Shown piece by piece: positions 1-17,592 of a DNA stretch of 64,000 nucleotides. The notes beneath the pieces were generated by a model. It was not told where the DNA came from. It did not search any database and saw only the letters and a program-made list of their open reading frames with translations. Made by a program: the position numbers and the translations under genes. This DNA comes from a phage: the sequence record PV419677.1; one strand, written 5' to 3'. The first letter of the stretch is position 1, and the number at the start of each line of letters is the position of its first letter.

Positions 1-27
1 AAAAAAGGGACCCGAAGGTCCCCTTTA
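1..27 (-). terminator. rho-independent terminator after gene 32
   Basis: minus-strand hairpin GGGACC-UUCG-GGUCCC followed by U-run directly downstream of the gp32 stop. Confidence 0.55.
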
Positions 28-29
28 TA

Positions 30-941
30 TTAAAGGCCAGCCAGAAGGTCGTCAAGACCATCATCGGAAGGCTCTGGAGCGCTTGGAGCAGTCGCAGTGC
101 GTTCAGACTTAGCAGGTTTGCTGGAAGTGAAGTCTTCCATATCTTTATCGAAATCGTCCAGGTCTGCGCCCAGTTTATCAGCTTGTGCGGCGGCTTTAGA
201 AGCAGCACCACCGAGAGCAGCCGTACCCATTACTTTAGAGAATTTCTTCTGATTCTCTTCAAAGGATTTAAACACCAGCAATTCATTCAGGTCAGACATT
301 TCGTCCCAAAGTTTTTTCTGGAATGCTTCATCATTGATACCAGCGATTTCAGACTGGTTCATGAATTTGGAATCATCGTAGTTTTTATAACCGGAAACCA
401 GTTTAGATTTCAGTACGAAGTTCGCACCTTCAAAAGGACAAGTTACATCAATAGCTGTTTCGCCCATGTCAACATCGACTTCAACCATCTGGTTAATTTT
501 ATCCATGATTTTCTTGCCGAAGCGATATTTGAATACTTGACCTTCGTTAGACGGAACAGCAGGGTCTTTAATGACCAGGATGTTAGCCCAGTAAGAAGTA
601 TTACGCTTCAGTTTACGATATTCGGATTCGTTTGTGTTGTACAGGTCATTCTTATTCATGTACGCACACACAGGACAGCTTTCATAGTCGCCGTGGGTAG
701 AAGTACAGTTTTCAATATACCATTGACCGCCATTTTTAAAGCCGTGGTTAACGAGCTTGATGAACGGAGATGGATTTTCTTCATTCTTGGAAGGCAGGAA
801 ACGAATAACCGCAGAGCCGACGCCATCAGTATCTTTCAGTTTCCATTCTTTTTTATCGTCAGAAGAGAAACCAGAACCACCTTTCAGAGCGTTAAGGGAA
901 GCAGCCAGGTCAGCAGGGTTACGACGTTTAAACATAGACAT
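30..941 (-). CDS. 32: single-stranded DNA-binding protein gp32
   Basis: 303 aa; matches recalled T4 gp32 (301 aa) along its length incl. acidic DDLDDLL C-terminus; synteny with 59/33/dsbA/rnh. Confidence 0.95.
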
Positions 942-999
942 ATGATTTTCCTTAGATTATTTGATTTTTAACAGTTGTTTTGATTACGTATTAATTATA

Positions 1000-1671
1000 T
1001 TACTTTTTATTTAAAGCGCATTTATCACGATGACGTTTTAAATGATTTATAGATGTTTCATATCCACATAAATCACAAATAGCTCTTGGTAATTTTTTAC
1101 CTTTAAACCCTTTGGGATGGATATTATCAGGGTTTGAGTAACGACGCTTAGCAGAATCACTAAGAGTTTTTATCACTTCATTACCTCTGATGTTATTTAT
1201 TTTATCATCTTTTTCATAAAAGCGATTTAGGCCTTCAGAAATTGATTTCTTATGCTCCATACTTTTTGGAACATCTTTTTGTGCTTCCGAAATACATTTA
1301 TTTGTATGTGCGGAATTTTTCATTCCATATCTTGGAGCACGTTCACCAGCACCACCGAATGCACCACGAGCCGTTGCTTTATTAAAGAATAGCGGGGATT
1401 TTGGTATATTATAATGGGCGTGGTACCACTCTTCCTCGTCCAAAACATCTTCGCAGACATCAAGTATTTTGATTGTCGGCTTTTCGAGTTGAATAGCTTC
1501 AAGAAAATCAGGTTGCTCACAGGAGGACCAATATTCTCTTCTTGACGTGTATTTCAAATCAATTATAACACCATTTTCAAAAGCACAATTATGCTTTGAC
1601 CCAATGTAAAAATAAGGAGGCGTTTTATTTTTCAGACGAGTTTCAAATGTAAACCAATACACAACATTCAA
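1000..1671 (-). CDS. GIY-YIG homing endonuclease, SegG-like (free-standing)
   Basis: 223 aa; N-terminal VVYWF...YFYIGSK resembles GIY-x10-YIG; located between 32 and 59 where T4 carries segG. Confidence 0.6.
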   Translation of the reverse strand: MNVVYWFTFETRLKNKTPPYFYIGSKHNCAFENGVIIDLKYTSRREYWSSCEQPDFLEAIQLEKPTIKILDVCEDVLDEEEWYHAHYNIPKSPLFFNKATARGAFGGAGERAPRYGMKNSAHTNKCISEAQKDVPKSMEHKKSISEGLNRFYEKDDKINNIRGNEVIKTLSDSAKRRYSNPDNIHPKGFKGKKLPRAICDLCGYETSINHLKRHRDKCALNKK

Positions 1672-2321
1672 AACTTACACCCTTTAACAGTCTCAATGAA
1701 CAATTTACGGGCTTCAAGAGAATCGATATTTAAGATTTTCTTATAAGCATTTAGTTTAGTTGAATACTTTTCCCAAACCAAGTCGTTAGTCTGTTCATCA
1801 TGTTTATTTATAATGCCTAAAAATGAATCAAGCAAACAAAACGTTTCAAATGAGATAACATTCGATTGGAGAAGTTTGAAAATATAACTTGTGTTTACTT
1901 TAGTATTATACTCGAAAATCTCTTGAAGCGATTTGACTTCGACTTTCTTACTGAAGTAATAGATATTCTTTATATCATCTTCGTATACTTGTTTAATTCT
2001 TTTAAGTCTGCCAATGTATTCTCGATAAAATATCAGAGCATCAGCATCGCTTATATCACCTATCCATGCATCCTGGTTCGCGACCAGGTTTGACATGAAT
2101 ATTAACGTTAATTCTTTGAGAGTGTACTTATCACTAAGCTTTTCGAAAAAATACTTATCGCGACGTTTTTGATAAGCACTATCGGAGATTCGCATGGTCC
2201 AGTTATATTTGATAATATCATAACGACCCGAAAAATGCTGTTTGATGGATAAGTACAGTTGATATACTGATTTACCATTTATGTATCGGTTGTTATTTGG
2301 AGGCATGCGAATCGTAATCAT
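1668..2321 (-). CDS. 59: helicase loader gp59
   Basis: 217 aa, same length as T4 gp59 and matches recalled sequence; stop/start overlap with upstream ORF. Confidence 0.9.
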   Translation of the reverse strand: MITIRMPPNNNRYINGKSVYQLYLSIKQHFSGRYDIIKYNWTMRISDSAYQKRRDKYFFEKLSDKYTLKELTLIFMSNLVANQDAWIGDISDADALIFYREYIGRLKRIKQVYEDDIKNIYYFSKKVEVKSLQEIFEYNTKVNTSYIFKLLQSNVISFETFCLLDSFLGIINKHDEQTNDLVWEKYSTKLNAYKKILNIDSLEARKLFIETVKGCKF

Positions 2322-2611
2322 AACAAAAAGTCCAGCGTATTAGTTTTCTGTGTACGAGACATACTCGGACGAAGCAGGTTATCATCATAGGCTTCGTTCA
2401 TAATCTTATCAATGATTCCCGCAGGAATGTATCGCGCAAAATTACCTTCAGGAATTCCACGTTCTTCCAACCAGGCAGTCGCAGCTTCCAGATAAGACAT
2501 TTCAGTTGACTCAACCATGGCTTCAATATCAAGCCCGTTTTGCTGCTTACTAATCGCCCCGGAAGGCGATTCAGTTTTCTGTGTATCGAAATTAACTAAA
2601 GAGGACATCAT
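2318..2611 (-). CDS. 33: late transcription co-activator gp33
   Basis: C-terminal ...LLRPSMSRTQKTNTLDFLL as in T4 gp33; start trimmed from track ORF to ATG at 2611 preceded by GGAG. Confidence 0.75.
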   Translation of the reverse strand: MMSSLVNFDTQKTESPSGAISKQQNGLDIEAMVESTEMSYLEAATAWLEERGIPEGNFARYIPAGIIDKIMNEAYDDNLLRPSMSRTQKTNTLDFLL

Positions 2612-2861
2612 AGAGCTCCACAGCTTCGGTTTTTTCATCTTCAAAACGTTCACGAGTGCCTTTATGATACAGACCGAGCTGTGTATTGAACATCTTACCG
2701 TCAACGCCTAATTCAGTTTTTGCCTTATCTTTAAGGTCTTTAATTTCGTCTGCATATGCTTCCATTTTTAATTTGGTATCGGAAGCAGCTTTAATCAGCT
2801 TGGCTAGTTCAGCGCCATGAGTATCAGGACAAAATTCAACTTTCACTTTTTTCTCTTTCAT
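2592..2861 (-). CDS. dsbA: dsDNA-binding protein DsbA
   Basis: 89 aa, same length as T4 DsbA; matches recalled sequence; position between rnh and 33. Confidence 0.8.
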   Translation of the reverse strand: MKEKKVKVEFCPDTHGAELAKLIKAASDTKLKMEAYADEIKDLKDKAKTELGVDGKMFNTQLGLYHKGTRERFEDEKTEAVELYDVLFS

Positions 2862-2869
2862 AATATACC

Positions 2870-3814
2870 TTAATAAAATTCAGCAATATTTGCAGTTAGT
2901 TTAGACAGACCAGACTTAACAAAGTAAGGATAAACTTTACTTTTGGCTGGGATAACGTAGTTATTATATCGTTCTAAGATTGAAGCGGATATTTCCGCTG
3001 GGATAAAGTCCATATCAATCAACAATTGGTTTTCACAGAATCTATTATATTGCTCTTCTGTTAAAAGCGTTTTCAAAACGTCATGGTCGTAATAATTGAG
3101 TGCAATTTGTTCAAGCTCAGCAGCGCGGGTCGGTGGGGTGCGTTCACCTTCTTCACGAGTGTAATAAAAATCACCACGAACCTTGATGCTTGACACGTTA
3201 TCTTTTTTGTCACCTTTAACAACCTTTGTCACGCAATCCATAAGAGCATCGCCTGATTTAGTTTTGACATATTTTTTCTGCATCGGTGACCATTGTTTTA
3301 CCCCAGGGAATTTATGCAACTGGGTAAAGTCGCCATCCGAAGAAACAACCATAACCGGATGTCCGAGACCAGTGAGCAATTTCGTTAATACTGCAATATG
3401 GTCGTCAGCCTCAATTTTATCCATATTCATCACGATGTAAGGCATATGTTTTTCCATTTCATCAATGATGATATGCATGGCAGCGTGTAGACCTTCCCAA
3501 TCAAATTGTGACTCTTCACGAGCTTTTGCACGGTTTTTCTTATAATAATAAGATTTCGTGCGTCGCCAATAACCATTCTTCGAATTATCAACACAAATAA
3601 TTGGGACTGTATAACCGAGCTTTTTAAACTGTACAATGTTTTTTCTGATAGAGTTCAGAACCAGATGTCTGGTCATTGCGGTTGTCACCTTAGGGAAGCC
3701 CGCGTCTTTACCGAATTCCTGGAAGGCTGCTGCCATGATGAGCTGACTAAAATCGAGTAACTGAAAACCATCTTTTTGACGGTCTTCTTCAGGGAGTAAA
3801 AAATCTAAATTCAT
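2870..3814 (-). CDS. rnh: RNase H / 5'-3' exonuclease
   Basis: 314 aa; motifs YYKKNRAKAREES, SSDGDFTQLH as in T4 RNase H (305 aa). Confidence 0.9.
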   Translation of the reverse strand: MNLDFLLPEEDRQKDGFQLLDFSQLIMAAAFQEFGKDAGFPKVTTAMTRHLVLNSIRKNIVQFKKLGYTVPIICVDNSKNGYWRRTKSYYYKKNRAKAREESQFDWEGLHAAMHIIIDEMEKHMPYIVMNMDKIEADDHIAVLTKLLTGLGHPVMVVSSDGDFTQLHKFPGVKQWSPMQKKYVKTKSGDALMDCVTKVVKGDKKDNVSSIKVRGDFYYTREEGERTPPTRAAELEQIALNYYDHDVLKTLLTEEQYNRFCENQLLIDMDFIPAEISASILERYNNYVIPAKSKVYPYFVKSGLSKLTANIAEFY

Positions 3815-3871
3815 ATGAACCTCTGTTCAATTAGTTGACTCGATTATATTAGCATAAAATTTTTAAAGCAA

Positions 3872-3879
3872 TATAAATA
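3872..3879 (+). promoter_or_regulatory. late promoter (TATAAATA) for gene 34
   Basis: exact TATAAATA about 30 nt upstream of gp34 ATG. Confidence 0.6.
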
Positions 3880-3909
3880 CACGTATACCAATCAATAAGG
3901 ATAAAGCAC

Positions 3910-6900
3910 ATGGCCGATATTTTAAAACCAGCATTCAGAGCAACATCCGGTCTCGATGCGGCTGGTGAGAAAGTCATTAATGTCGCGAAAGCTGATTTCT
4001 CAGTTTTGTCAGACGGCGTTAACGTAGACTTCTTTATAGAAGAAAACACAATTCAACAATATGATGCAACACGCGGATATAAGAAAGATTTTGCAGTTAT
4101 CTATGATAACCGTATTTGGGTTTCCCAACGTGAAATCGCAGAACCAGCTGGCCCATTTGTTCAGCAATATTGGACCGCAACCCGTACTGACCCGAAATGG
4201 GAAACTGTTGCATCACCAACTCGTCAGCTTAGCTCCGGGGAATTTATCGCAGTCGACTCAGCTGCAAGCTTTACCACATTTACATTGCCTCCGAACCCGA
4301 CTGATGGTGATACCATCGTTATTAAAGATATCGGCGGTAATACCGGTTATAATGAAATTAAAATCCAGTCAAGCAACGTGCCTGGCCAAGGTAACCAAAA
4401 GATTGTTCGCTTTGGTAATCAGTATTCAGAAGTTTTAATTACCAAACCATTCTCTTATAACATGCTTATCTTTTCAAACCGCTTATGGCAATTTTGGGAA
4501 GCAGGTAACGAAGAACGTGGTATCAGAGTAGAACCGTCGACCGGACGTTTCCATGCACAAGCTGGCGACTTTATTATGCGTCGTTATACAACTGGTGCAC
4601 CGATTACTTTCATTCTTCCTAAGTATGCAAACCAGGGTGATATTGTCAAATCTGTTGATATCGATGGCATGGGGCCAACGTTCCACCTGATGGTTGAAAC
4701 CTTTGACACCAGTTCCAGTCTTGGTAAAGCTGGCCAGCATCAAATGGAATTCCGTACCACAGGTGATGGTTTCTTCGTTTATGATGCTGCCGAAAAACTC
4801 TGGCATGTTTGGGACGGTGATTTTAAAACTCGTCTTCGTGTTATTCGCGACAGCGTTAAACTTTTACCAAACGAAAGTGTCATTGTATTTGGCGAAGATA
4901 ACTCAACTCCGGCAACGATTAATATCGATTTACCAACGGATGTTTTGCAAGGCGATATTGTTAAGATTGCGCTGAACTATCTCCGTAAATCGCAGACTGT
5001 TAATATAAGAGCTGCTGTCGGCGATAAGATTGCAACTGACATTAAATTGCTGCAATTCCCTAAACGTTCCGAGTATCCACCAGATACAACTTGGGTGATG
5101 GTTGATTCATTGACCTTTAATGGCAACATCAGTTATACTCCGGTTATTGAATTATCATATGCAGAAGATGCAGTGTCTGGAACAAGTTATTGGGTTGTCG
5201 CTCAGAACGTCCCGACTGTCGAACGAGTTGACTCATTAAATGATTCCACGCGTACACGTCTTGGTGTTATTGCTCTGGCAAACCAGACTCAGGCAAACGT
5301 TGACCATGAAAATAACCCAGAGAAAGAACTCGCAATTACACCTCAGACTTTAGCCAACCGTGTTGCTAAAGAGAACCAACGAGGCATTGCCAGAATCGCA
5401 ACGACTGCCCAAGTAAATCAGAACAGTGATTTTGCATTTGTTGATGATGTAATTATTTCTCCGAAAAAACTCAATGAACGTACGGCAACAGAAACGAGAC
5501 GTGGGCTCGCAGAACTCGCCACACAGCAAGAAACCGATGCGGGTGTAGATGATACCACAATTATAACTCCAAAGAAACTGCAAGCTCGCCAGGGCTCAGA
5601 ATCGCTATCCGGTATTGTAACTTACGTTTCAACGACTGGTGCAACTCCTGCTGCTTCGCGTGAATTAAATGGTACAAACGTTTATAATAAAAATACGGTT
5701 AATCTGGTTGTTTCTCCGAAAGCTCTTGACCAGTACAAAGCTACTTACACCCAGCAAGGCGCGGTTATTCTTGCGGTTGAAAGTGAAGTAATCGCTGGTA
5801 CTTCTCAATCTGGCTGGGCAAACGCAGTCGTTACTCCAGAAATGTTGCATCGCAAAACTGCTCTTGATTCCCGTATCGGTTTAATCGAGATTGCTACTCA
5901 AGTTGAAACAGATGCAGGAACCGATTATACCAGAGCTGTGACTCCTAAAACGTTAAATGACCGTAAAGCATCAGAAACGTTAACCGGCATAGCCGAGATT
6001 GCTACGCAATCAGAATTTGATACTGGAACTGATGATACTCGTATCTCAACTCCATTAAAAATTAAAAATAGATTTAATAATACTGCTCGTACTTCTGTTA
6101 ATGCATTAAGTGGTTTAGTAGAAACAGGGACGCTCTGGGACCATTATAGCCTGAATATTCTTGAAGCAAATGAGACTCAGCGTGGCACAGCAAGATTAGC
6201 AACTCAGGGTGAAGTCAATACTGGCACTGACGATAAAACAATCGTTACTCCGCTTAAATTGATGTCGAAAAAAGCCACTGAAAACGCCGAAGGTATTGTT
6301 CGCATCGCGACAAACGCAGAAGCAACAGCAGGCACATCAAAAGTCTTGGCCATTAGTCCGTCTGCGCTGAAATATATTGCCCAAACGGAAACAACTTGGG
6401 AAGCATCTGAAACACTGCGTGGATTTGTTCGTTTATCTTCCGGTGCAGCTACTTCGGCCGCAACTACAACGACGGGCGCGGGATTTACATATGAAAATGG
6501 TGTGTATACCCCGGACCCAAGTAAACTGGTTAGCTATGCGAAATCTGGATATGCAGTTTCGCCTTACGAATTAAACCGCGTATTGCAAAACTTCTTACCG
6601 ATAAATGCGATGGCTGTTAATGCTGAAAAACTGGATAACCTCGATTCGACCCAGTTTATTCGTCGTGATATTGCTCAGACTGTTGAAGGTGTATTAACCC
6701 TTACTAAGCAGACAAATATCTCTGCTCCGGTTGTATCGACGAGCACTGCGGTGTTTACTGATGTAACGGCTGGTACTTCGACGTTCGGAACTGTGAATGT
6801 TGTTAATGGAACTAACAAGTGGAAAATCACTGCTCCTTCCGCCGGAACAACAATGACTATTGGCGATACGACTAACGTATTGACATTAAACACCGCCTCG

Positions 6901-7874: not shown

Positions 7875-9005
7875 ATGGAAAAATTTATGGCAGAGTTTGG
7901 ACAAGGATACGTCCAAACGCCAGTTATATCAGAAAATAATGCCGTTAAATTTAAAATGAGTATAGCAGGGAGCTGTACTCTTTCCACGGTGAAATCGTAT
8001 ATCAAATTTCAGGATGAACGAATTGGACCAACTACTTTTGGTAATGGTCTGACTCTATTGGAAATTGATACAACTACGAATAAAATTGTTAACACGAAAA
8101 ACTATTCATTAACTAGCACGCATGATGCAATCAGTCAGGCATTAATCACCTTTGTGGAATCTGTTCCAGCCGGAAGATTGATTGCTTTTATTTCTTCAGG
8201 GAAACTAAACGCATCACAGACATTAATTGATTGGTTCCGTAAATGTGGTTCAAGAGCATTCCCGGAGAAATGGCTGATTGATAAAGTTGATACATCGTAC
8301 TCGGCTTTTTACATAACCGGCCGGAATGTAATTGTTTCGGAGCATGTTAAGTATAATGACGGGAAGTTAGTTGAGGATGTTTCGACCCCGCTTGAAGTCA
8401 TTTATGATACCTTTAGTGATATAGGAGCAACAGGCTATCCTGTACGCATAACGGAAGACGAGAGCACGTATTCATCAACAGGTGATGGAACATCAACCAC
8501 AATTAAAAGGTTCCCCACAGAGGACCTGGTGACTCCTATGGATACCTATAACCTTTTACCTTTGGATGTGCTTTACTTGAAGTTTCAGATGTCATTTGAC
8601 GCAGCACTGAAAGCCGCCGGAACTGTAAGGACTTCGGTTCGATTCTTTAAAAGCCCCAGCACTTCACCGATATCAAATACAAACATCGATATTGCAGCAA
8701 ACGTTCCAGCCGGGGCTTGGGCGAGTTTCGAAAGATATGTCGAGATTCCACCAGGAGCTGATGGTTTTACAGTAGTAACATCAAGAACTGTAGCTACTGG
8801 AACAGGGTCAATACGTAATATTGTTATTGGTGAGATAACCAGAGGCGACTCGGCATTCAAACCAGCTGAATTTGGTGTCAATGGCATAAGGATGTCATAT
8901 GCAAACGATGCAACAAATACAGGTAATACAATTGTAACATTCCCGGATGCACAAGCTCCGAGAGCCGGCAAGATATATGCAGCCGAACTACGAGAAAAAC
9001 AATAG
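7875..9005 (+). CDS. 35: long tail fibre hinge connector gp35
   Basis: 376 aa (T4 372 aa); position directly after 34. Confidence 0.85.
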   Translation: MEKFMAEFGQGYVQTPVISENNAVKFKMSIAGSCTLSTVKSYIKFQDERIGPTTFGNGLTLLEIDTTTNKIVNTKNYSLTSTHDAISQALITFVESVPAGRLIAFISSGKLNASQTLIDWFRKCGSRAFPEKWLIDKVDTSYSAFYITGRNVIVSEHVKYNDGKLVEDVSTPLEVIYDTFSDIGATGYPVRITEDESTYSSTGDGTSTTIKRFPTEDLVTPMDTYNLLPLDVLYLKFQMSFDAALKAAGTVRTSVRFFKSPSTSPISNTNIDIAANVPAGAWASFERYVEIPPGADGFTVVTSRTVATGTGSIRNIVIGEITRGDSAFKPAEFGVNGIRMSYANDATNTGNTIVTFPDAQAPRAGKIYAAELREKQ

Positions 9006-13000: not shown

Positions 13001-13801
13001 ATGGCAGTAGTTGGAGTTCCTGGCTGGATTGGAAGTTCAGCCGTAAATGAAACAGGACAACGATGGATGAGTCAAGCGGCTGGTCAATTAAGATTAGGTG
13101 TTCCTTGCTGGATGAGTCAATTTGCAGGTCGCTCAAGAGAAATTATTCACACGCTTGGAGCAGACCACAACTTTAACGGGCAATGGTTCCGCGACCGTTG
13201 CTTTGAAGCCGGTAGTGCGCCTATTGTTTTTAATCTTACAGGTACATTAGTATCTTATACCCGTGATGTTCCATTGTTCTTTATGTATGGGGATACTCCA
13301 AACGAATATGTTCAATTGAATATTGGTGGTGGGGTTCATATATGGGGCCGAGGTGGTCAAGGTGGATGGACCCACTCGGGTGGCGATGGCAACGGGCAAT
13401 GGGGTGGAACTTGTATTGTAAATGATATTGGCGGTCGTTTAAGAATTAATAATGGTGGGGTTATCTGCGGCGGTGGCGGCGGCGGTGGCGGCATCGCTTA
13501 TCGTCCTCACTCTGGTGCAAACTGGCAAGATATTGGTGGCGGTGGAGGAAGACCATTTGGCCTAGGCGGCGGTGGTGGATATTCAGGTGGCGGAGCTTCT
13601 TTGGATGGTCCAGGAGGTGGTTATCAATACGGAAATGCCCACTCTGGTCATGGTGGGGATGCCGGCGGAGCAGGTCAGAATGCATGGTCTGACGGTGGTA
13701 AAGTTCTAAAAGTCGGCGCTGGAGGCGGCGCAGGAGCTGCTGTTGCTGGAAGTTCTCCTACTTGGCATAATACAGGTGTTATCTACGGTTCCTGGCTATA
13801 G
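13001..13801 (+). CDS. 38: T2-type tail fibre adhesin gp38 (Gly-rich motifs flanking variable segments)
   Basis: 266 aa; conserved N-terminus, then multiple poly-Gly blocks (GGGGGGGG, GGGGG) separated by short variable segments. Confidence 0.85.
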
Positions 13802-13838: not shown

Positions 13839-14492
13839 ATGGAACCAAAAGTAGGAATATCAATACCCGACCTACTTTTTGGACTTCTTGATAGAATTTT
13901 TAAAGATAATGCGACCGGGAAAGTTGTTTTTTCCCGGGTACTAGTTATTGTTCTATTATTTTTAATGGCGGTAATCTGGTATAAAGGTGATGCACTTTTA
14001 GATGCGTACAGGGATGCTTCATATGCCTCATACACTGAAATGATAAGGCAAGACCAGGATAACAGATTTAAAATTGCAGCTATCGAGCAAATCCAGATAG
14101 TCCACTCGTCAAGTGGGGCAGACTTTACAGCAATATATTCTTTTAGACCAACTAACCTTAACTACTTTGTGGATATGGTGGGTTACGAGGGGATATTGCC
14201 TGATACAGTCGACGAAAAAAATTTAGGTGGGTTTCCAATAGATAAGACTTCAGCGGAATATTTGGCGGGGGTTAATGGTAATTATTTTGAATCCAGCGTG
14301 GAATCTGTATTCTTACCAACAAAGAAAAAAAGCAGCTTCACATATATGTTCAGCTGCCCATTCTTTAATTTGGAAAACGTTTATGCAGGCACAGTCTCAC
14401 TGTACTGGTATAAGCAAAAACCCGACCTTGGTTTTGATAGGCTTTCTTCTATGTGTGGACAAGCAGGTCGTACGCTCGGGCGTACACGTTAG
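13839..14492 (+). CDS. t: holin T
   Basis: 217 aa (T4 218 aa); LDRIFKDNATGKV..., YMFSCPFFNLENVYAGT match recalled T4 holin. Confidence 0.9.
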   Translation: MEPKVGISIPDLLFGLLDRIFKDNATGKVVFSRVLVIVLLFLMAVIWYKGDALLDAYRDASYASYTEMIRQDQDNRFKIAAIEQIQIVHSSSGADFTAIYSFRPTNLNYFVDMVGYEGILPDTVDEKNLGGFPIDKTSAEYLAGVNGNYFESSVESVFLPTKKKSSFTYMFSCPFFNLENVYAGTVSLYWYKQKPDLGFDRLSSMCGQAGRTLGRTR

Positions 14493-14764
14493 AATCCGGA
14501 GGTATACATCATAAGATAACGGTGTATATCTTCGAATCCTTCGTTAAATTGTTCAATGATTTGTTCAATTTCATCTTCAGATAAACTTTTAAACAATTTG
14601 TTAAACGATACATTGTTTAACTCATTCCCATTCTCATTTCTCAATCCCAACTCATTCAAAAACGCGATAAACACATCGCGCTTCATCGTAATATCTTCCC
14701 GGTCGGTTTTAATCAAAATTGAAGTTATAGTAACAATTTCAGAAACGATTTCAAATTTAGTCAT
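14489..14764 (-). CDS. asiA: anti-sigma70 factor AsiA
   Basis: 91 aa; EIVTITSILIK...FIAFLNE...EFNEGFE..YRYL matches recalled T4 AsiA (90 aa). Confidence 0.9.
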   Translation of the reverse strand: MTKFEIVSEIVTITSILIKTDREDITMKRDVFIAFLNELGLRNENGNELNNVSFNKLFKSLSEDEIEQIIEQFNEGFEDIHRYLMMYTSGF

Positions 14765-14822
14765 TTTAATTTACTCAAGTATTCAATAAGACATTCAATT
14801 ATTCAGTAAGGGTATTATACTA

Positions 14823-14987
14823 TTATTCCTCTGGGTTGTACACATGATTTTCCATCTGTACAACATATTCCTGATACATCTGTTCAACTGGTTCCTGGAA
14901 CTTAAAATCAGCTCCAAGGAATTCCTCAAAGCAAGCCTGTTCGTGCGTACGTTGACCGGTGATGGTGTTCTCTAAGTTATGACTCAT
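14823..14987 (-). CDS. hypothetical small protein (54 aa)
   Basis: ATG with AGGGA Shine-Dalgarno; below the 60-aa ORF-track cutoff; between asiA and arn. Confidence 0.35.
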   Translation of the reverse strand: MSHNLENTITGQRTHEQACFEEFLGADFKFQEPVEQMYQEYVVQMENHVYNPEE

Positions 14988-15076
14988 AATGATTCCCTTT
15001 GTGCTTCTGCTTACGTTTGGACTGCATTTTGGTTTTCTTCTTGTCCTTATGGACAGACGCCTTATTGAAATCGTGC

Positions 15077-15355
15077 TTAGCTACCAGATTGTTCATGCAA
15101 TTTCCTTAATTGATATTCAAGAGAACTGATAATTTCTTTATTAGTTGCAATATACATATCACGTAGGAAGGGTTTCAGACCTTCTCTAACTCTATACGTG
15201 TTATCACTAATATCCTTTATATATTCATGGTCTAAAGCATCCCAAGCCGGCTGGTTAACATAAGTTCCCCAGTTATCTTCCATCATAGTGTTCAGACGTT
15301 TGATATGATTGATATGGGTTTCGATTGCATCAATCTGGAGTTGTTTAAGGTTCAT
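15077..15355 (-). CDS. arn: possible anti-restriction nuclease Arn
   Basis: 92 aa, same length and genomic slot as T4 Arn; assignment by synteny only. Confidence 0.45.
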   Translation of the reverse strand: MNLKQLQIDAIETHINHIKRLNTMMEDNWGTYVNQPAWDALDHEYIKDISDNTYRVREGLKPFLRDMYIATNKEIISSLEYQLRKLHEQSGS

Positions 15356-15966
15356 TAATAAAGGTCCTCTGAATAAAGTTCTTTTTCACTACCGCCACGT
15401 TCAATACGCACCTGATTTGCATAAGTCGCAATAATCATTGCTTCTTCGCGGGTCCAGTAATTGCTGTACTGGTCAATGAATCCTTGATTATCACCACAAA
15501 CATGGTCTGACACAAGTTTATCACTTACTTGGTCAAGCACTTCTGCCATATCCTTGGAATAATGTCTGGCACCAGGAATAACCAGAGTCCCACCATCTTT
15601 TAACTTAAATCGGTTGGCGGCACATACAATCCGTCGCTGATATTTTTCATTGTTATTCCAATGCGCAATCTGCCAACAGATTTCCGGGACTTCTTCCAGA
15701 ATATCTTTTTCATCGCATGTGTATCCATGTGCTTTAAATTTTTCAGCGAGGCTTTTGGGGGTTTCACGCGATTCTGGTGCTGGTAACATTTCTAAACGAG
15801 TGATAAACGGATTCATTTCACAATTACCTTCTTCATTATATTCGGTGTAATCACCGTATGCATGTAATTTAGCAGCGAGACTTTCAGGAGTCTCCCGAGA
15901 AAGAGCTTTATCTAACAAGGCCATACGGTCTTTAAAGGATAATGCTTTACCTTTTAATGGATTCAT
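15355..15966 (-). CDS. hypothetical protein with internal tandem repeat
   Basis: 203 aa; two N-terminal repeats ([18 protein letters not shown] / [18 protein letters not shown]); C-terminal IVCAAN...[12 protein letters not shown] motif of unknown family. Confidence 0.6.
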
Positions 15967-16310
15967 TTGAAAATCACCTTATAACCGTTATCTTTAGCGA
16001 ATTCTTGAATTTTAGCGGCGGTTTCAATTAAATCACCTTTATAATAGGATGATAATTTAATATCAACTGTTTTGCCTTCGCCATACGAAGTTATATTCAC
16101 TTTTTCCGTAAAAATAAGCTCAAGAAATCGCAATAGCTGCATACCAAATTCAAGAGTAACATTATCAATCTGGAGGTTAAGTTGATAAGTTTTCTTAATA
16201 CCATTCACCAGGGCACAGCGCTCATCCCAATCATTACGTTGTTCTTCAATCAATTTAAGGGAATGACCTTCGCCATCCCAATTTAGTTCCATAGGAATCA
16301 TTTGAACCAA
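15963..16310 (-). CDS. hypothetical protein
   Basis: 115 aa; stop/start overlap with neighbours. Confidence 0.5.
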
Positions 16311-16630
16311 CCTTTAACACGTTGCCACAGACTTTTCTGTTGAGCTTTATTAACACCAATTGAGCGAATAACTGGTTGTGATTCCAGGTATTCTTTATAG
16401 TCAGCTTTATAGACTTCATATGCTGCTGGAACAAAGGCACCAATCGCCGCCATGAAGTTCTTGCGAGCACCAAATGGAGCTACTGCATCATCCTGGCGAT
16501 GGATAAGATACTGACCAGCTTTGACCTTGACAATAGTCCCAAGGTAAGCGCCATGATACCAAACATCCCAACCCTCTTGAGTAGGTTCTACGCAAGCACG
16601 CAATTCATTAACAATATTCAGCTTATTCAT
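16298..16630 (-). CDS. hypothetical protein
   Basis: 110 aa; in arn-motA interval. Confidence 0.5.
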   Translation of the reverse strand: MNKLNIVNELRACVEPTQEGWDVWYHGAYLGTIVKVKAGQYLIHRQDDAVAPFGARKNFMAAIGAFVPAAYEVYKADYKEYLESQPVIRSIGVNKAQQKSLWQRVKGWFK

Positions 16631-16637
16631 AATTTCC

Positions 16638-17246
16638 TCACTTTAAGATGTTAATAACATGTTGAATGTTTTCAGTTGACATATGATTGTCAATGTAGGT
16701 ATTCAATCCACCTACTTTAACGCTAAATCCCACGTCTGTAAACTGTTTTACTATCTTTTGTTCAGTATTATACGCATGCACACGAATCTGACCATCACGA
16801 CGTACATCAATCTGTTTTAATGTCTTGATACGCTTGAACTTCACAATCAGATTGCTGCGGTCTTCTGAAATGCTCTTAAAGTCAATACCAATAGACAACA
16901 ATTGCTCTTTGATATATTCTGCAGTCGCTTCCATTTCATCAGTAACGCCGCGTTTTGTTCTTGTCTTCTTCACTTCCAGAAGGTCAGGATTATTTTCATT
17001 TGCCCAAAGTTCAGCTGCGTCCAGAATAAGGTCAACACCTTTTTCCGTAACCATCAAACCATCACCAGAAGCTTCAACATAGTTGTTATTCAACAATGTC
17101 TGTACGCTATCAATTGATGTGTTCTGCTGGTCTAAAACAACCTCAGGACGCACGAAGTTGTTTTTATATACAAACACCAGAGCATTAACATCAGTCTCAT
17201 GTAGAGCGTTCTGGGAGCATTTAACGATATAATTTAGCTTGTTCAT
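16638..17246 (-). CDS. motA: middle transcription activator MotA
   Basis: 202 aa (T4 211 aa); position between arn cluster and gene 52; partial similarity to recalled MotA. Confidence 0.65.
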   Translation of the reverse strand: MNKLNYIVKCSQNALHETDVNALVFVYKNNFVRPEVVLDQQNTSIDSVQTLLNNNYVEASGDGLMVTEKGVDLILDAAELWANENNPDLLEVKKTRTKRGVTDEMEATAEYIKEQLLSIGIDFKSISEDRSNLIVKFKRIKTLKQIDVRRDGQIRVHAYNTEQKIVKQFTDVGFSVKVGGLNTYIDNHMSTENIQHVINILK

Positions 17247-17248
17247 AA

Positions 17249-17476
17249 TTATCCCTTAATAGATTTCATGTAATTTGATGCATATGATTGTACCACAGTA
17301 CGTTTCATATGGGAAGTAGAAACAATAACATCAATCGCTTGTTTACGTTCTTCTTTAGAATTCGCCAGTTTGAACATGTCAAAGTAATAATAGCAAGCTT
17401 CTTTATTAGATTTGAATTTAGCGTTAATGTATTCTTGACCTTCATTCTGTTGTGCAGTAAACATTTTATTCTCCAA
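17249..17476 (-). CDS. hypothetical protein
   Basis: 75 aa ORF directly upstream of motA. Confidence 0.45.
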   Translation of the reverse strand: MENKMFTAQQNEGQEYINAKFKSNKEACYYYFDMFKLANSKEERKQAIDVIVSTSHMKRTVVQSYASNYMKSIKG

Positions 17477-17562: not shown

Positions 17563-17592
17563 TTAAAATAAAAAAGGACCCCGAAGGGTCCT
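17563..17592 (-). terminator. rho-independent terminator
   Basis: GGACCC-UUCG-GGGUCC hairpin plus U-run after small ORF downstream of gene 52. Confidence 0.6.

Follow-up and report, generated by a model that had tools for sequence, protein, structure and literature searches.

What is the 203-aa protein encoded in the motA-asiA interval of the phage of sequence record PV419677.1, and how did it acquire the repeat at its N-terminus? The window analyzed here is 64 kb of this one phage record; coordinates refer to the window and residue numbers to the 203-aa protein. A first-pass annotation had described three co-oriented open reading frames (ORFs) of 110, 115 and 203 aa, which are indeed present on the minus strand directly downstream of motA. 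It had taken them for an insertion beside the putative anti-McrBC gene arn, and had attributed to the longest product a duplicated segment of about 30 aa, a segment with a loose resemblance to nucleotide-binding loops and a plausible anti-defence or host-modulation role. We found that the 203-aa protein is Arn.3 with a 5' end rebuilt by recombination. Further, sequence comparison indicates that its N-terminal module very probably shares ancestry with the two N-terminal helices of CmdA, which is the antitoxin in the phage defence system CmdTAC.

In blastp, residues 51-203 were 80% identical to T4 Arn.3 (E = 9e-94). The protein also matched phrog_839 (E = 4e-77), and PF26092 is the Pfam family precomputed for its homologues. 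The gene lies between arn.2 and arn.4/motA, as in T4-like genomes, and the product carries the RH, QGFxD, R and Q residues and the C-terminal L[FY]SExLY of the Arn.3 core, its terminus being ...YSEDLY as in T4. It differs from T4 Arn.3 by 50 additional N-terminal residues, which constitute a second, more CmdA-like copy of a module that T4 possesses once and in degenerate form.

CmdTAC (PD-T4-9) is a toxin-antitoxin-chaperone abortive infection system found in a P2-like prophage of E. coli ECOR22, and it restricts T-even phages (PMC9519451; PMC11618068). The toxin CmdT is an ADP-ribosyltransferase that modifies mRNA, CmdA serves as the antitoxin, and the chaperone CmdC is SecB-like. In infected cells, CmdA is dislodged from CmdC by the T4 capsid protein and degraded by ClpXP, which sets CmdT free (PMC9519451; PMC11618068). 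CmdA consists of an N-terminal helix pair followed by a long, unstructured, chaperone-dependent tail that ends in a ClpXP tag, and beyond neutralization it is also required for the folding and stabilization of CmdT (PMC11618068).

When the 203-aa protein was scanned with PADLOC, a single significant match was obtained, in which positions 2-31 of the profile PD-T4-9_B aligned with residues 9-38 (E = 2.5e-10). The protein has a two-helix N-terminal domain that fits the CmdA family profile; AlphaFold2 placed the helices of this module (module 1) at residues 11-22 and 27-36, with a predicted local distance difference test score (pLDDT) of 84-89. The same profile matched Arn.3 of SP18 (E = 1.5e-9) and the homologues P0012 (9e-9), P0022 and P0104 (1e-8), and N-termini of the SP18 type and of the "MKTFKERL" type scored between 1e-8 and 1e-9. 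The match of T4 Arn.3 was weak (E = 0.0026).

A tblastn search with module 1 led to a complete, annotated PD-T4-9 A/B/C operon in a P2-like Vibrio phage, the match lying inside gene B. This Vibrio operon (extract 1405-2675) adjoins replication gene A of a 34.6-kb P2-like phage, the same kind of hotspot as in E. coli ECOR22. Vibrio CmdA aligned with Arn.3 N-termini without gaps over 35 residues at 37-46% identity, with R7, L10, L11, L15 and P20 invariant. When Vibrio CmdA was used to search the window by tblastn, it detected module 1 (15856-15942; E = 7e-5), and the only other match lay elsewhere and was non-significant (E = 0.036). A hidden Markov model (HMM) seeded with three Vibrio sequences only, without any Arn.3 in the seed, matched the 203-aa ORF alone among 1097 six-frame ORFs of the window and detected the module in 32 of 268 Arn.3-family clusters. 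The comparisons with CmdA used the PADLOC profile and Vibrio CmdA; E. coli cmdA, sought by tblastn in plasmids, gave no match. The shared features of the module and CmdA (PADLOC PDLC04070; Vassallo et al. 2022 and 2024) are the helix pair and the pattern F-x-E/D-R-L/M-x-L-L-x3-L-x4-P-x2-L.

Beyond the helix pair, the two proteins differ. The last matched profile position was the 31st of 77, and the 203-aa protein, which ends in ...EDLY, has neither the chaperone-addiction tail of CmdA nor its ClpXP tag (LAA/AA). It is not encoded beside CmdT and CmdC: tblastn with the Vibrio proteins found no credible homologue of either in the window, and the neighbouring genes are arn.2 and a 112-aa ORF. Further, the module is fused to a folded phage domain of 95 aa and resides in a lytic phage, not in a P2-like prophage hotspot.

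A module without the degron tail was also found in the lytic vibriophages 1.103.O (gp30; extract 1486-1641) and 6E35.1a (p0373; extract 1495-1650), the latter a T4-like Schizotequatrovirus of 253 kb. In both, it forms an unannotated stand-alone ORF of 51 aa (46-49 aa from an MLSF start), with PADLOC E-values of 2.6e-14 and 8.4e-13, respectively. Unlike the module of the window, these miniproteins do not adjoin an Arn.3 core, and their resemblance to Vibrio CmdA is greater (54-70% identity). No mention of phage homologues of CmdA was found in the two papers on the mechanism of CmdTAC, and in the literature searched the resemblance of the Arn.3 N-terminus to CmdA appears to be unreported.

The internal repeat proved to be real. 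Residues 1-41 aligned with residues 51-83 with a BLOSUM62 score of 64, compared with 19.5 +/- 3.8 for 2000 shuffled sequences (z = 11.7), none of which scored as high. At the DNA level, a 47-nt copy was 70% identical and a 25-nt copy, which spans the ribosome-binding site and ATG, was 84% identical. Tandem Repeats Finder reported no repeat in this region because the copies are too diverged. The unit measures approximately 33-46 aa, and the first-pass view of a simple duplication did not hold: the repeat is a mosaic of two allelic N-termini and not a simple recent tandem duplication.

When the DNA of the window was aligned with that of SP18, PSD2001, T4 and VEc20, its arn.3 corresponded to the SP18 arrangement with 123 additional in-frame nucleotides. 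Arn.3 comprises 162 aa in SP18 and 152 aa in T4, and the N-termini of the two are of different types. The window protein consists, in order, of SP18-type residues 1-46, GNCE, T4-type residues 51-95 (module 2) and the invariant Arn.3 core. The 123-nt segment opens with AAGGTAATTGTGAAATGAATCC, a copy of the authentic upstream junction AAGGTGATTTTCAAATGAATCC (repeat D2). It contains the last codons of a gene of the 112-aa type (KVIVK versus KVIFK, each followed by a stop), an AAGGT Shine-Dalgarno-like element, an ATG and most of module 2. This content indicates that two arn.3 alleles were joined out of register and that both parents carried the orphan 112-aa ORF upstream. The base composition of the segment and of the 112-aa ORF was unremarkable.

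Module 1 was 93% identical to SP18-type N-termini. Module 2 showed at most 74% protein identity to any sampled T4-type N-terminus and at most 78% DNA identity to any sampled allele, so that either its donor is unsampled or the copy has drifted. Module 2 is degenerate, as is the module of T4: alone it gave no PADLOC match, in the Vibrio-seeded HMM it appeared as a weak secondary domain only (0.4-0.5 bits), and its pLDDT was 58-76. Exactly five phage records, near-identical to one another, contained the junction-bearing allele (the 203-aa form) with an identity of at least 99%, and the next best match was 78%. As the spacing between the relic ribosome-binding site and the ATG has been retained, internal initiation at Met51, which would yield an ordinary Arn.3 of 153 aa, is plausible.

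The 5' junction of arn.3 has been rebuilt repeatedly, into a T4 type, an SP18 type, a MIPMEL-leader type and an orphan ORF with a captured leader, and the 5' end of the gene appears to be recombination-prone. With regard to the last of these, residues 1-20 encoded by the 112-aa ORF matched the N-terminus of the Arn.3 homologue P0082 at 19 of 20 positions, and approximately 12 other homologues were similar. In phages that have this leader on Arn.3, arn.3 itself comes next after arn.4. The orphan ORF thus seems, from these sequences, to have captured an ancestral arn.3 leader on entering the locus. In some Tequatroviruses (Bas35, extract 8841-8996; VEc20, extract 1343-1498), a different ORF of 51 aa (MKTFKIVVEFYN...) is inserted between arn.4 and arn.3. 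Its position at the junction occupied by the 112-aa ORF in Gaprivervirus is a further sign of a junction hotspot.

For the Arn.3 core, 1.84 billion representative proteins were searched with a profile, which yielded 2925 clusters (E <= 1e-3; clusters at 50% identity). In the 150 best matches, the conserved core comprised approximately 95 residues and was nearly always located at the extreme C-terminus, and 137 of 148 proteins from this set ended in L[FY]SExLY or a close variant. The invariant or near-invariant positions are R134-H135, Q161-G-F-x-D165, R173, Q185 and S199-E200-x-L-Y203. The core occurs alone (83-110 aa), behind diverse unannotated N-terminal regions (up to 434 aa) or twice in tandem. 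In the tandem members P0135 and P0136 the first copy is degenerate; such tandem cores hint that the core works as a dimer.

In a scan of bacterial genomes, the core was found in prophage-like contexts only. In Ackermannviridae, as in T4-like phages, the core gene is located just downstream of the topoisomerase II genes. In Kuttervirus phages (extracts 1-3282) it follows the genes for the topoisomerase II subunits at a distance of two small genes, an arrangement that echoes gene 52 / motA / arn of T4-like phages, and one of the intervening genes encodes a DUF6527 protein. A Kuttervirus gene near the Arn.3 homologue that had been taken by eye for a macro domain was dropped, as it had no Pfam match.

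AlphaFold2 modelled the core with a pLDDT of 93-98 as a beta-hairpin, a helix, two short strands, a second helix and a C-terminal tail that packs back, and no solved protein with a similar fold was found. The segment IVCAAN...PGARH, previously likened to nucleotide-binding loops, is a beta-hairpin of this conserved core. The 203-aa protein contains neither a Walker A motif (GxxxxGK[ST]) nor GxGxxG and is not a P-loop or Rossmann protein by these motifs. All three proteins were scanned against Pfam and NCBIfam, and a further 62 core-only family members and ten long fusion proteins against Pfam; the scans gave sub-threshold noise only (including DNA_gyraseB at 16 bits and AcrIC5 at 13.6 bits), with no nucleotide-binding match and no homology to a housekeeping enzyme. 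Searches of PDB sequences with single sequences and with a profile gave no credible match, the top one being COP9 subunit 4 (E = 0.04). The core is unrelated to CmdT (hhalign probability 0.2%; no PD-T4-9_A match), and a median pI of approximately 6 led us to discard the idea of a strongly acidic DNA mimic or of a basic protein that binds nucleic acids.

Foldseek against BFVD found only uncharacterized phage proteins and weak matches to polyvalent proteins. The latter place the Arn.3 core beside the associated-domain segments of large polyvalent proteins (E ~1e-3; Iyer et al. 2017, PMC5512222), which likewise combine with varied N-terminal regions; unlike those giant multidomain proteins, Arn.3 is small and stand-alone, and no Pfam LPD model matches it. 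The residue pattern and the strict need for a free C-terminal Tyr suggest that Arg-His, Gln/Asp, Arg, Gln and the terminal Ser-Glu-x-Leu-Tyr-COOH may line a pocket that is small-ligand-binding or catalytic. No functional study of arn.3, PF26092 or phrog_839 was found in the literature searched.

What might a CmdA-like module do on a phage protein? We tentatively favour, at somewhat less than even odds, the reading that it is a stable, chaperone-independent and degron-free antitoxin mimic that neutralizes CmdT. During infection, the capsid protein would titrate CmdC, CmdA would be degraded and CmdT would be freed. The phage module would then bind CmdT and keep it neutralized after the loss of host CmdA, and abortive infection would be blocked. 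Fusion to the folded Arn.3 core would stabilize the module, so that no chaperone would be needed, and the core would have a separate activity. A canonical module stacked on a degenerate one would recover or broaden the coverage of CmdT alleles, and initiation at Met51 may also supply the ordinary 153-aa form. Binding and neutralization of CmdT, the benefit of the duplication and the use of Met51 are what we infer from the module and its arrangement.

T4 Dmd is a phage-encoded antitoxin substitute that acts against RnlA/LsoA. The logic proposed for Arn.3 would be analogous, namely a stable phage neutralizer of a toxin set free by the loss of the host antitoxin. The module of the window is a sequence homologue of a host antitoxin, whereas Dmd has no homology to the antitoxins for which it substitutes.

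Published restriction data allow a limited comparison. CmdTAC is reported to reduce the plating of all tested BASEL Tevenvirinae 100- to 100,000-fold, except for Bas35 and Bas38 (PMC11618068). We extracted arn.3 from Bas35-47 and T4 and scored the N-termini with the Vibrio-seeded HMM; note that the paper gives 12 tested phages and the BASEL table lists 13. The two reported escapers, Bas35 and Bas38, have canonical modules (21.4 and 20.8 bits, respectively), as do Bas36, Bas46 and Bas47 (24.7-25.4 bits), which are not listed as escapers. Nine phages with T4-type modules (Bas37, Bas39-45 and T4; 8.6-11.5 bits) are reported as restricted. In this small set, a canonical module looks necessary but not sufficient for escape, which is suggestive only.

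Several points weigh against the antitoxin-mimic reading. The association between module and escape was not significant (Fisher one-sided ~0.08-0.11). Bas36, Bas46 and Bas47 indicate that a canonical module is not sufficient; these exceptions, or the escapes themselves, could arise from allele specificity or from variation in the capsid trigger. T4 is fully restricted by CmdTAC in spite of its (degenerate) Arn.3 module. Further, T4 escape mutants selected on CmdTAC map to alt.-3 and not to arn.3 (PMC11618068). The CmdA-homologous stretch covers only about 30-35 residues, and the N-terminal helices are presumed to be the toxin-binding part of CmdA. Complete E. coli genomes contained no match to the DNA of module 1. 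In the Arn.3 family, most members are without the module, which therefore does not explain the core.

The main rival is neutral mosaicism, for which we see roughly one chance in three. The 123-nt addition would then be a tolerated by-product of illegitimate recombination between arn.3 alleles in the recombination-prone, accessory motA-asiA stretch; the helical hairpin would be a generic solubility, dimerization or adaptor element of CmdA ancestry without anti-CmdT activity, and function would reside in the core. The restriction of the 203-aa form to five near-identical records, the degeneration of module 2 and the repeated rebuilding of the same junction are consistent with this account, as are the many Arn.3 homologues that have no N-terminal module or have unrelated N-termini, the reported sensitivity of the canonical Bas36, Bas46 and Bas47, and the restriction of T4 despite its Arn.3. 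However, the module is conserved across diverged phages at E-values of 1e-8 to 1e-10 against the CmdA model, and the fact that lytic vibriophages encode it by itself, in a stand-alone ORF, suggests that it has its own function. Further, the system that it resembles is specifically directed against T-even phages, and both known natural escapers have the canonical form.

The module might instead serve the biology of the phage itself, either as an intramolecular regulator or folding aid for the core or as a docking element for a partner unrelated to CmdT, such as phage ADP-ribosyltransferases or the replication/topoisomerase machinery encoded nearby. We consider this unlikely. In its favour, CmdA is needed for CmdT to fold and to be stabilized (PMC11618068), both Straboviridae and Ackermannviridae have arn.3-like genes immediately after those for topoisomerase II, and tandem cores in some members suggest core dimerization. 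Against it, the core folds confidently and is widespread without the module, it bears no relation to CmdT, and the vibriophage miniproteins do not adjoin it. Smaller still is the chance that Arn.3 is a two-part counter-defence against RNA ADP-ribosylating toxins, which we regard as quite improbable. In that scheme, the module would dock on and neutralize CmdT, and the universally conserved core, as a new fold whose pocket is formed by Arg-His, Gln-Asp and the C-terminal carboxylate, would act on the chemistry, for example by binding NAD+ or ADP-ribose or removing ADP-ribose from RNA, with allelic diversity and tandem stacking as the record of an arms race with CmdT alleles. Least credible of all is the original proposal of a nucleotide-binding-loop protein inserted beside arn and tied to the evasion of McrBC. 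It draws on the name of the locus only, the database label "anti-restriction nuclease" having been carried over from arn locus names, and it is contradicted by the absence of arn from the window, where the neighbour is arn.2, by the lack of a P-loop or Rossmann motif and of Pfam or NCBIfam matches, by the synteny of the genes with T4, and by a published statement that arn.1 to arn.4 are genes of unknown function (bioRxiv 10.64898/2026.06.19.733364). An anti-defence role as such is more plausible than before through the homology to CmdA; it was the arguments first offered for it, from neighbour, insertion and loop, that failed.

The surroundings of arn.3 identify the phage. The window is from a T4-type phage of the genus Gaprivervirus (SP18-like): positions 14400-17400 were 99.4-98.9% identical to Escherichia phages ECML-359, TH40, EAWsc9, pEC-M719-6WT.2 and TH41, and their identity to Shigella phage SP18 was 94%. 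In the motA-asiA early-middle gene block of this genus, the region represents the conserved stretch arn.4 / 112-aa orphan ORF / arn.3 / arn.2, an assignment in which, identity and anatomy taken jointly, we have high confidence. The order on the minus strand is gene 52, a terminator hairpin, a 75-aa ORF, motA, the 110-aa, 112-aa, 203-aa and 92-aa ORFs, small ORFs and asiA (Table 1). Adjoining genes overlap by 1-13 nt, with the sole exception of the 7 nt that separate motA and the 110-aa ORF. The PHROG assignments of the window genes are those tabulated for the T4 genes (PMC11879866 supplement).

Table 1. Features of the arn.3 locus, in window coordinates.
Feature	Position	Strand	Basis
asiA	14489-14764	-	
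arn.2 homologue, 92 aa	15077..15355	-	T4 Arn.2 39% identity; phrog_1844; SP18 orthologue annotated arn.2
arn.3 allele, 203 aa (two N-terminal modules and core)	15355..15966	-	T4 Arn.3 match; phrog_839
Arn.3 core domain, residues 108-203 and stop codon	15355..15645	-	
Module 2, residues 51-95, diverged T4-type copy	15682..15816	-	Identity to T4-type N-termini
In-frame 123-nt (41-codon) segment, lacking in SP18	15707..15829	-	Five-way DNA alignment
Met51 ATG inside the 123-nt segment	15814-15816	-	
Module 1, residues 1-46, SP18-type, CmdA-like	15830..15966	-	PADLOC PD-T4-9_B; AlphaFold2 helix pair
112-aa orphan ORF, SP18 gp271-like (115 aa from TTG at 16310)	15963..16301 (15963-16310 from TTG)	-	phrog_14178
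arn.4, full-length 110-aa form	16298..16630	-	
motA, 202 aa, upstream gene of the same tightly packed operon	16638..17246	-	Pfam MotA_activ, MotCF; phrog_1345

In T2, arn.4 through arn have been reported as one middle transcript (bioRxiv 10.64898/2026.06.19.733364). Knock-down of arn.2, arn.3 and arn.4 of T4 was scored as "Not Fit" in CRISPRi-ART, that is, without a fitness defect in the laboratory host (PMC11879866 supplement). These genes are thus dispensable on a laboratory host, which fits an accessory status.

The 92-aa protein matched T4 Arn.2 (E = 3e-23) and phrog_1844 (E = 1.7e-41) and gave no blastp match to T4 Arn (phrog_3151); across the whole window, tblastn detected no homologue of T4 Arn, the McrBC inhibitor. 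The gene at first called arn is therefore arn.2, and it was probably taken for arn because both proteins are 92 aa long. Nor is there a three-gene insertion: arn.3 and arn.4 occupy the same place in T4, and the sole gene that is extra relative to T4 is the 112-aa ORF.

The 110-aa protein is Arn.4 (phrog_1594/33982; PF26821) by its similarity, with 78% identity to T4 Arn.4 over residues 51-110, and by its place directly after motA. Arn.4 is limited to T4-like phages, and its model was of moderate confidence and without a fold relative. In T4, arn.4 is annotated as 68 aa, compared with 107-114 aa in the family. The T4 DNA located 5' of the annotated start can still be aligned with the full-length gene of the window, suggesting that T4 arn.4 is truncated or disrupted at its 5' end. 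The 202-aa MotA was 33% identical to T4 MotA (E = 2e-34), and its Pfam domains were MotA_activ (4.7e-12) and MotCF (3.1e-9).

The 112-aa ORF, the E-value of which against phrog_14178 was 1e-66, starts as annotated in its relatives, at an ATG at 16301 that overlaps the upstream stop. Its homologues formed just six clusters among 5.8 billion proteins. The 49 phage records that contained it all belonged to Gaprivervirus, Dhakavirus or close relatives of these, and it was absent from T4 and from Gaprivervirus PSD2001. A match to Ribosomal_S10 (20.1 bits, Pfam) was sub-threshold noise.

Other observations concern the block as a whole. In Klebsiella phage SAKp28 (PP660556), the motA/arn.4/arn.3/arn.2 block is present twice as a mirror image (extract 1431-4093) in a 61.8-kb "complete genome", probably an assembly artefact. 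In the window, a perfect 7-bp GC-rich hairpin (AGGACCC CGAA GGGTCCT; 17575-17592) separates gene 52 from the 75-aa ORF that precedes motA, and with the T-run that follows on the minus strand it is likely a terminator. A MotA-box-like middle-promoter pattern (TGCTTGACC...TAAACT; 15515-15539, minus strand) is present within arn.3, upstream of arn.2; such patterns had 11 matches across the window compared with approximately five expected by chance, and this one may be a chance match. Directly upstream of the holin gene, positions 13001-13801 (plus strand) encode a 266-aa protein with long glycine runs, which by eye and by position looks like a gp38 tail-fibre adhesin of the T2/T6 type.

CmdTAC is widespread and blocks T-even phages, and no natural phage inhibitor of it has been described in the papers searched. 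If the module is indeed an antitoxin mimic, a lytic phage would have captured the neutralizing half of a host antitoxin, and a gene listed as "hypothetical" ever since the T4 genome was annotated would in part have a function. This could help to account for the escape of Bas35 and Bas38 from CmdTAC and would provide a simple sequence marker that predicts the sensitivity of a phage to the system. Further, the Arn.3 core, as a very large phage family with a confident model and catalytic-looking residues, is a good target for structure determination and ligand screening.

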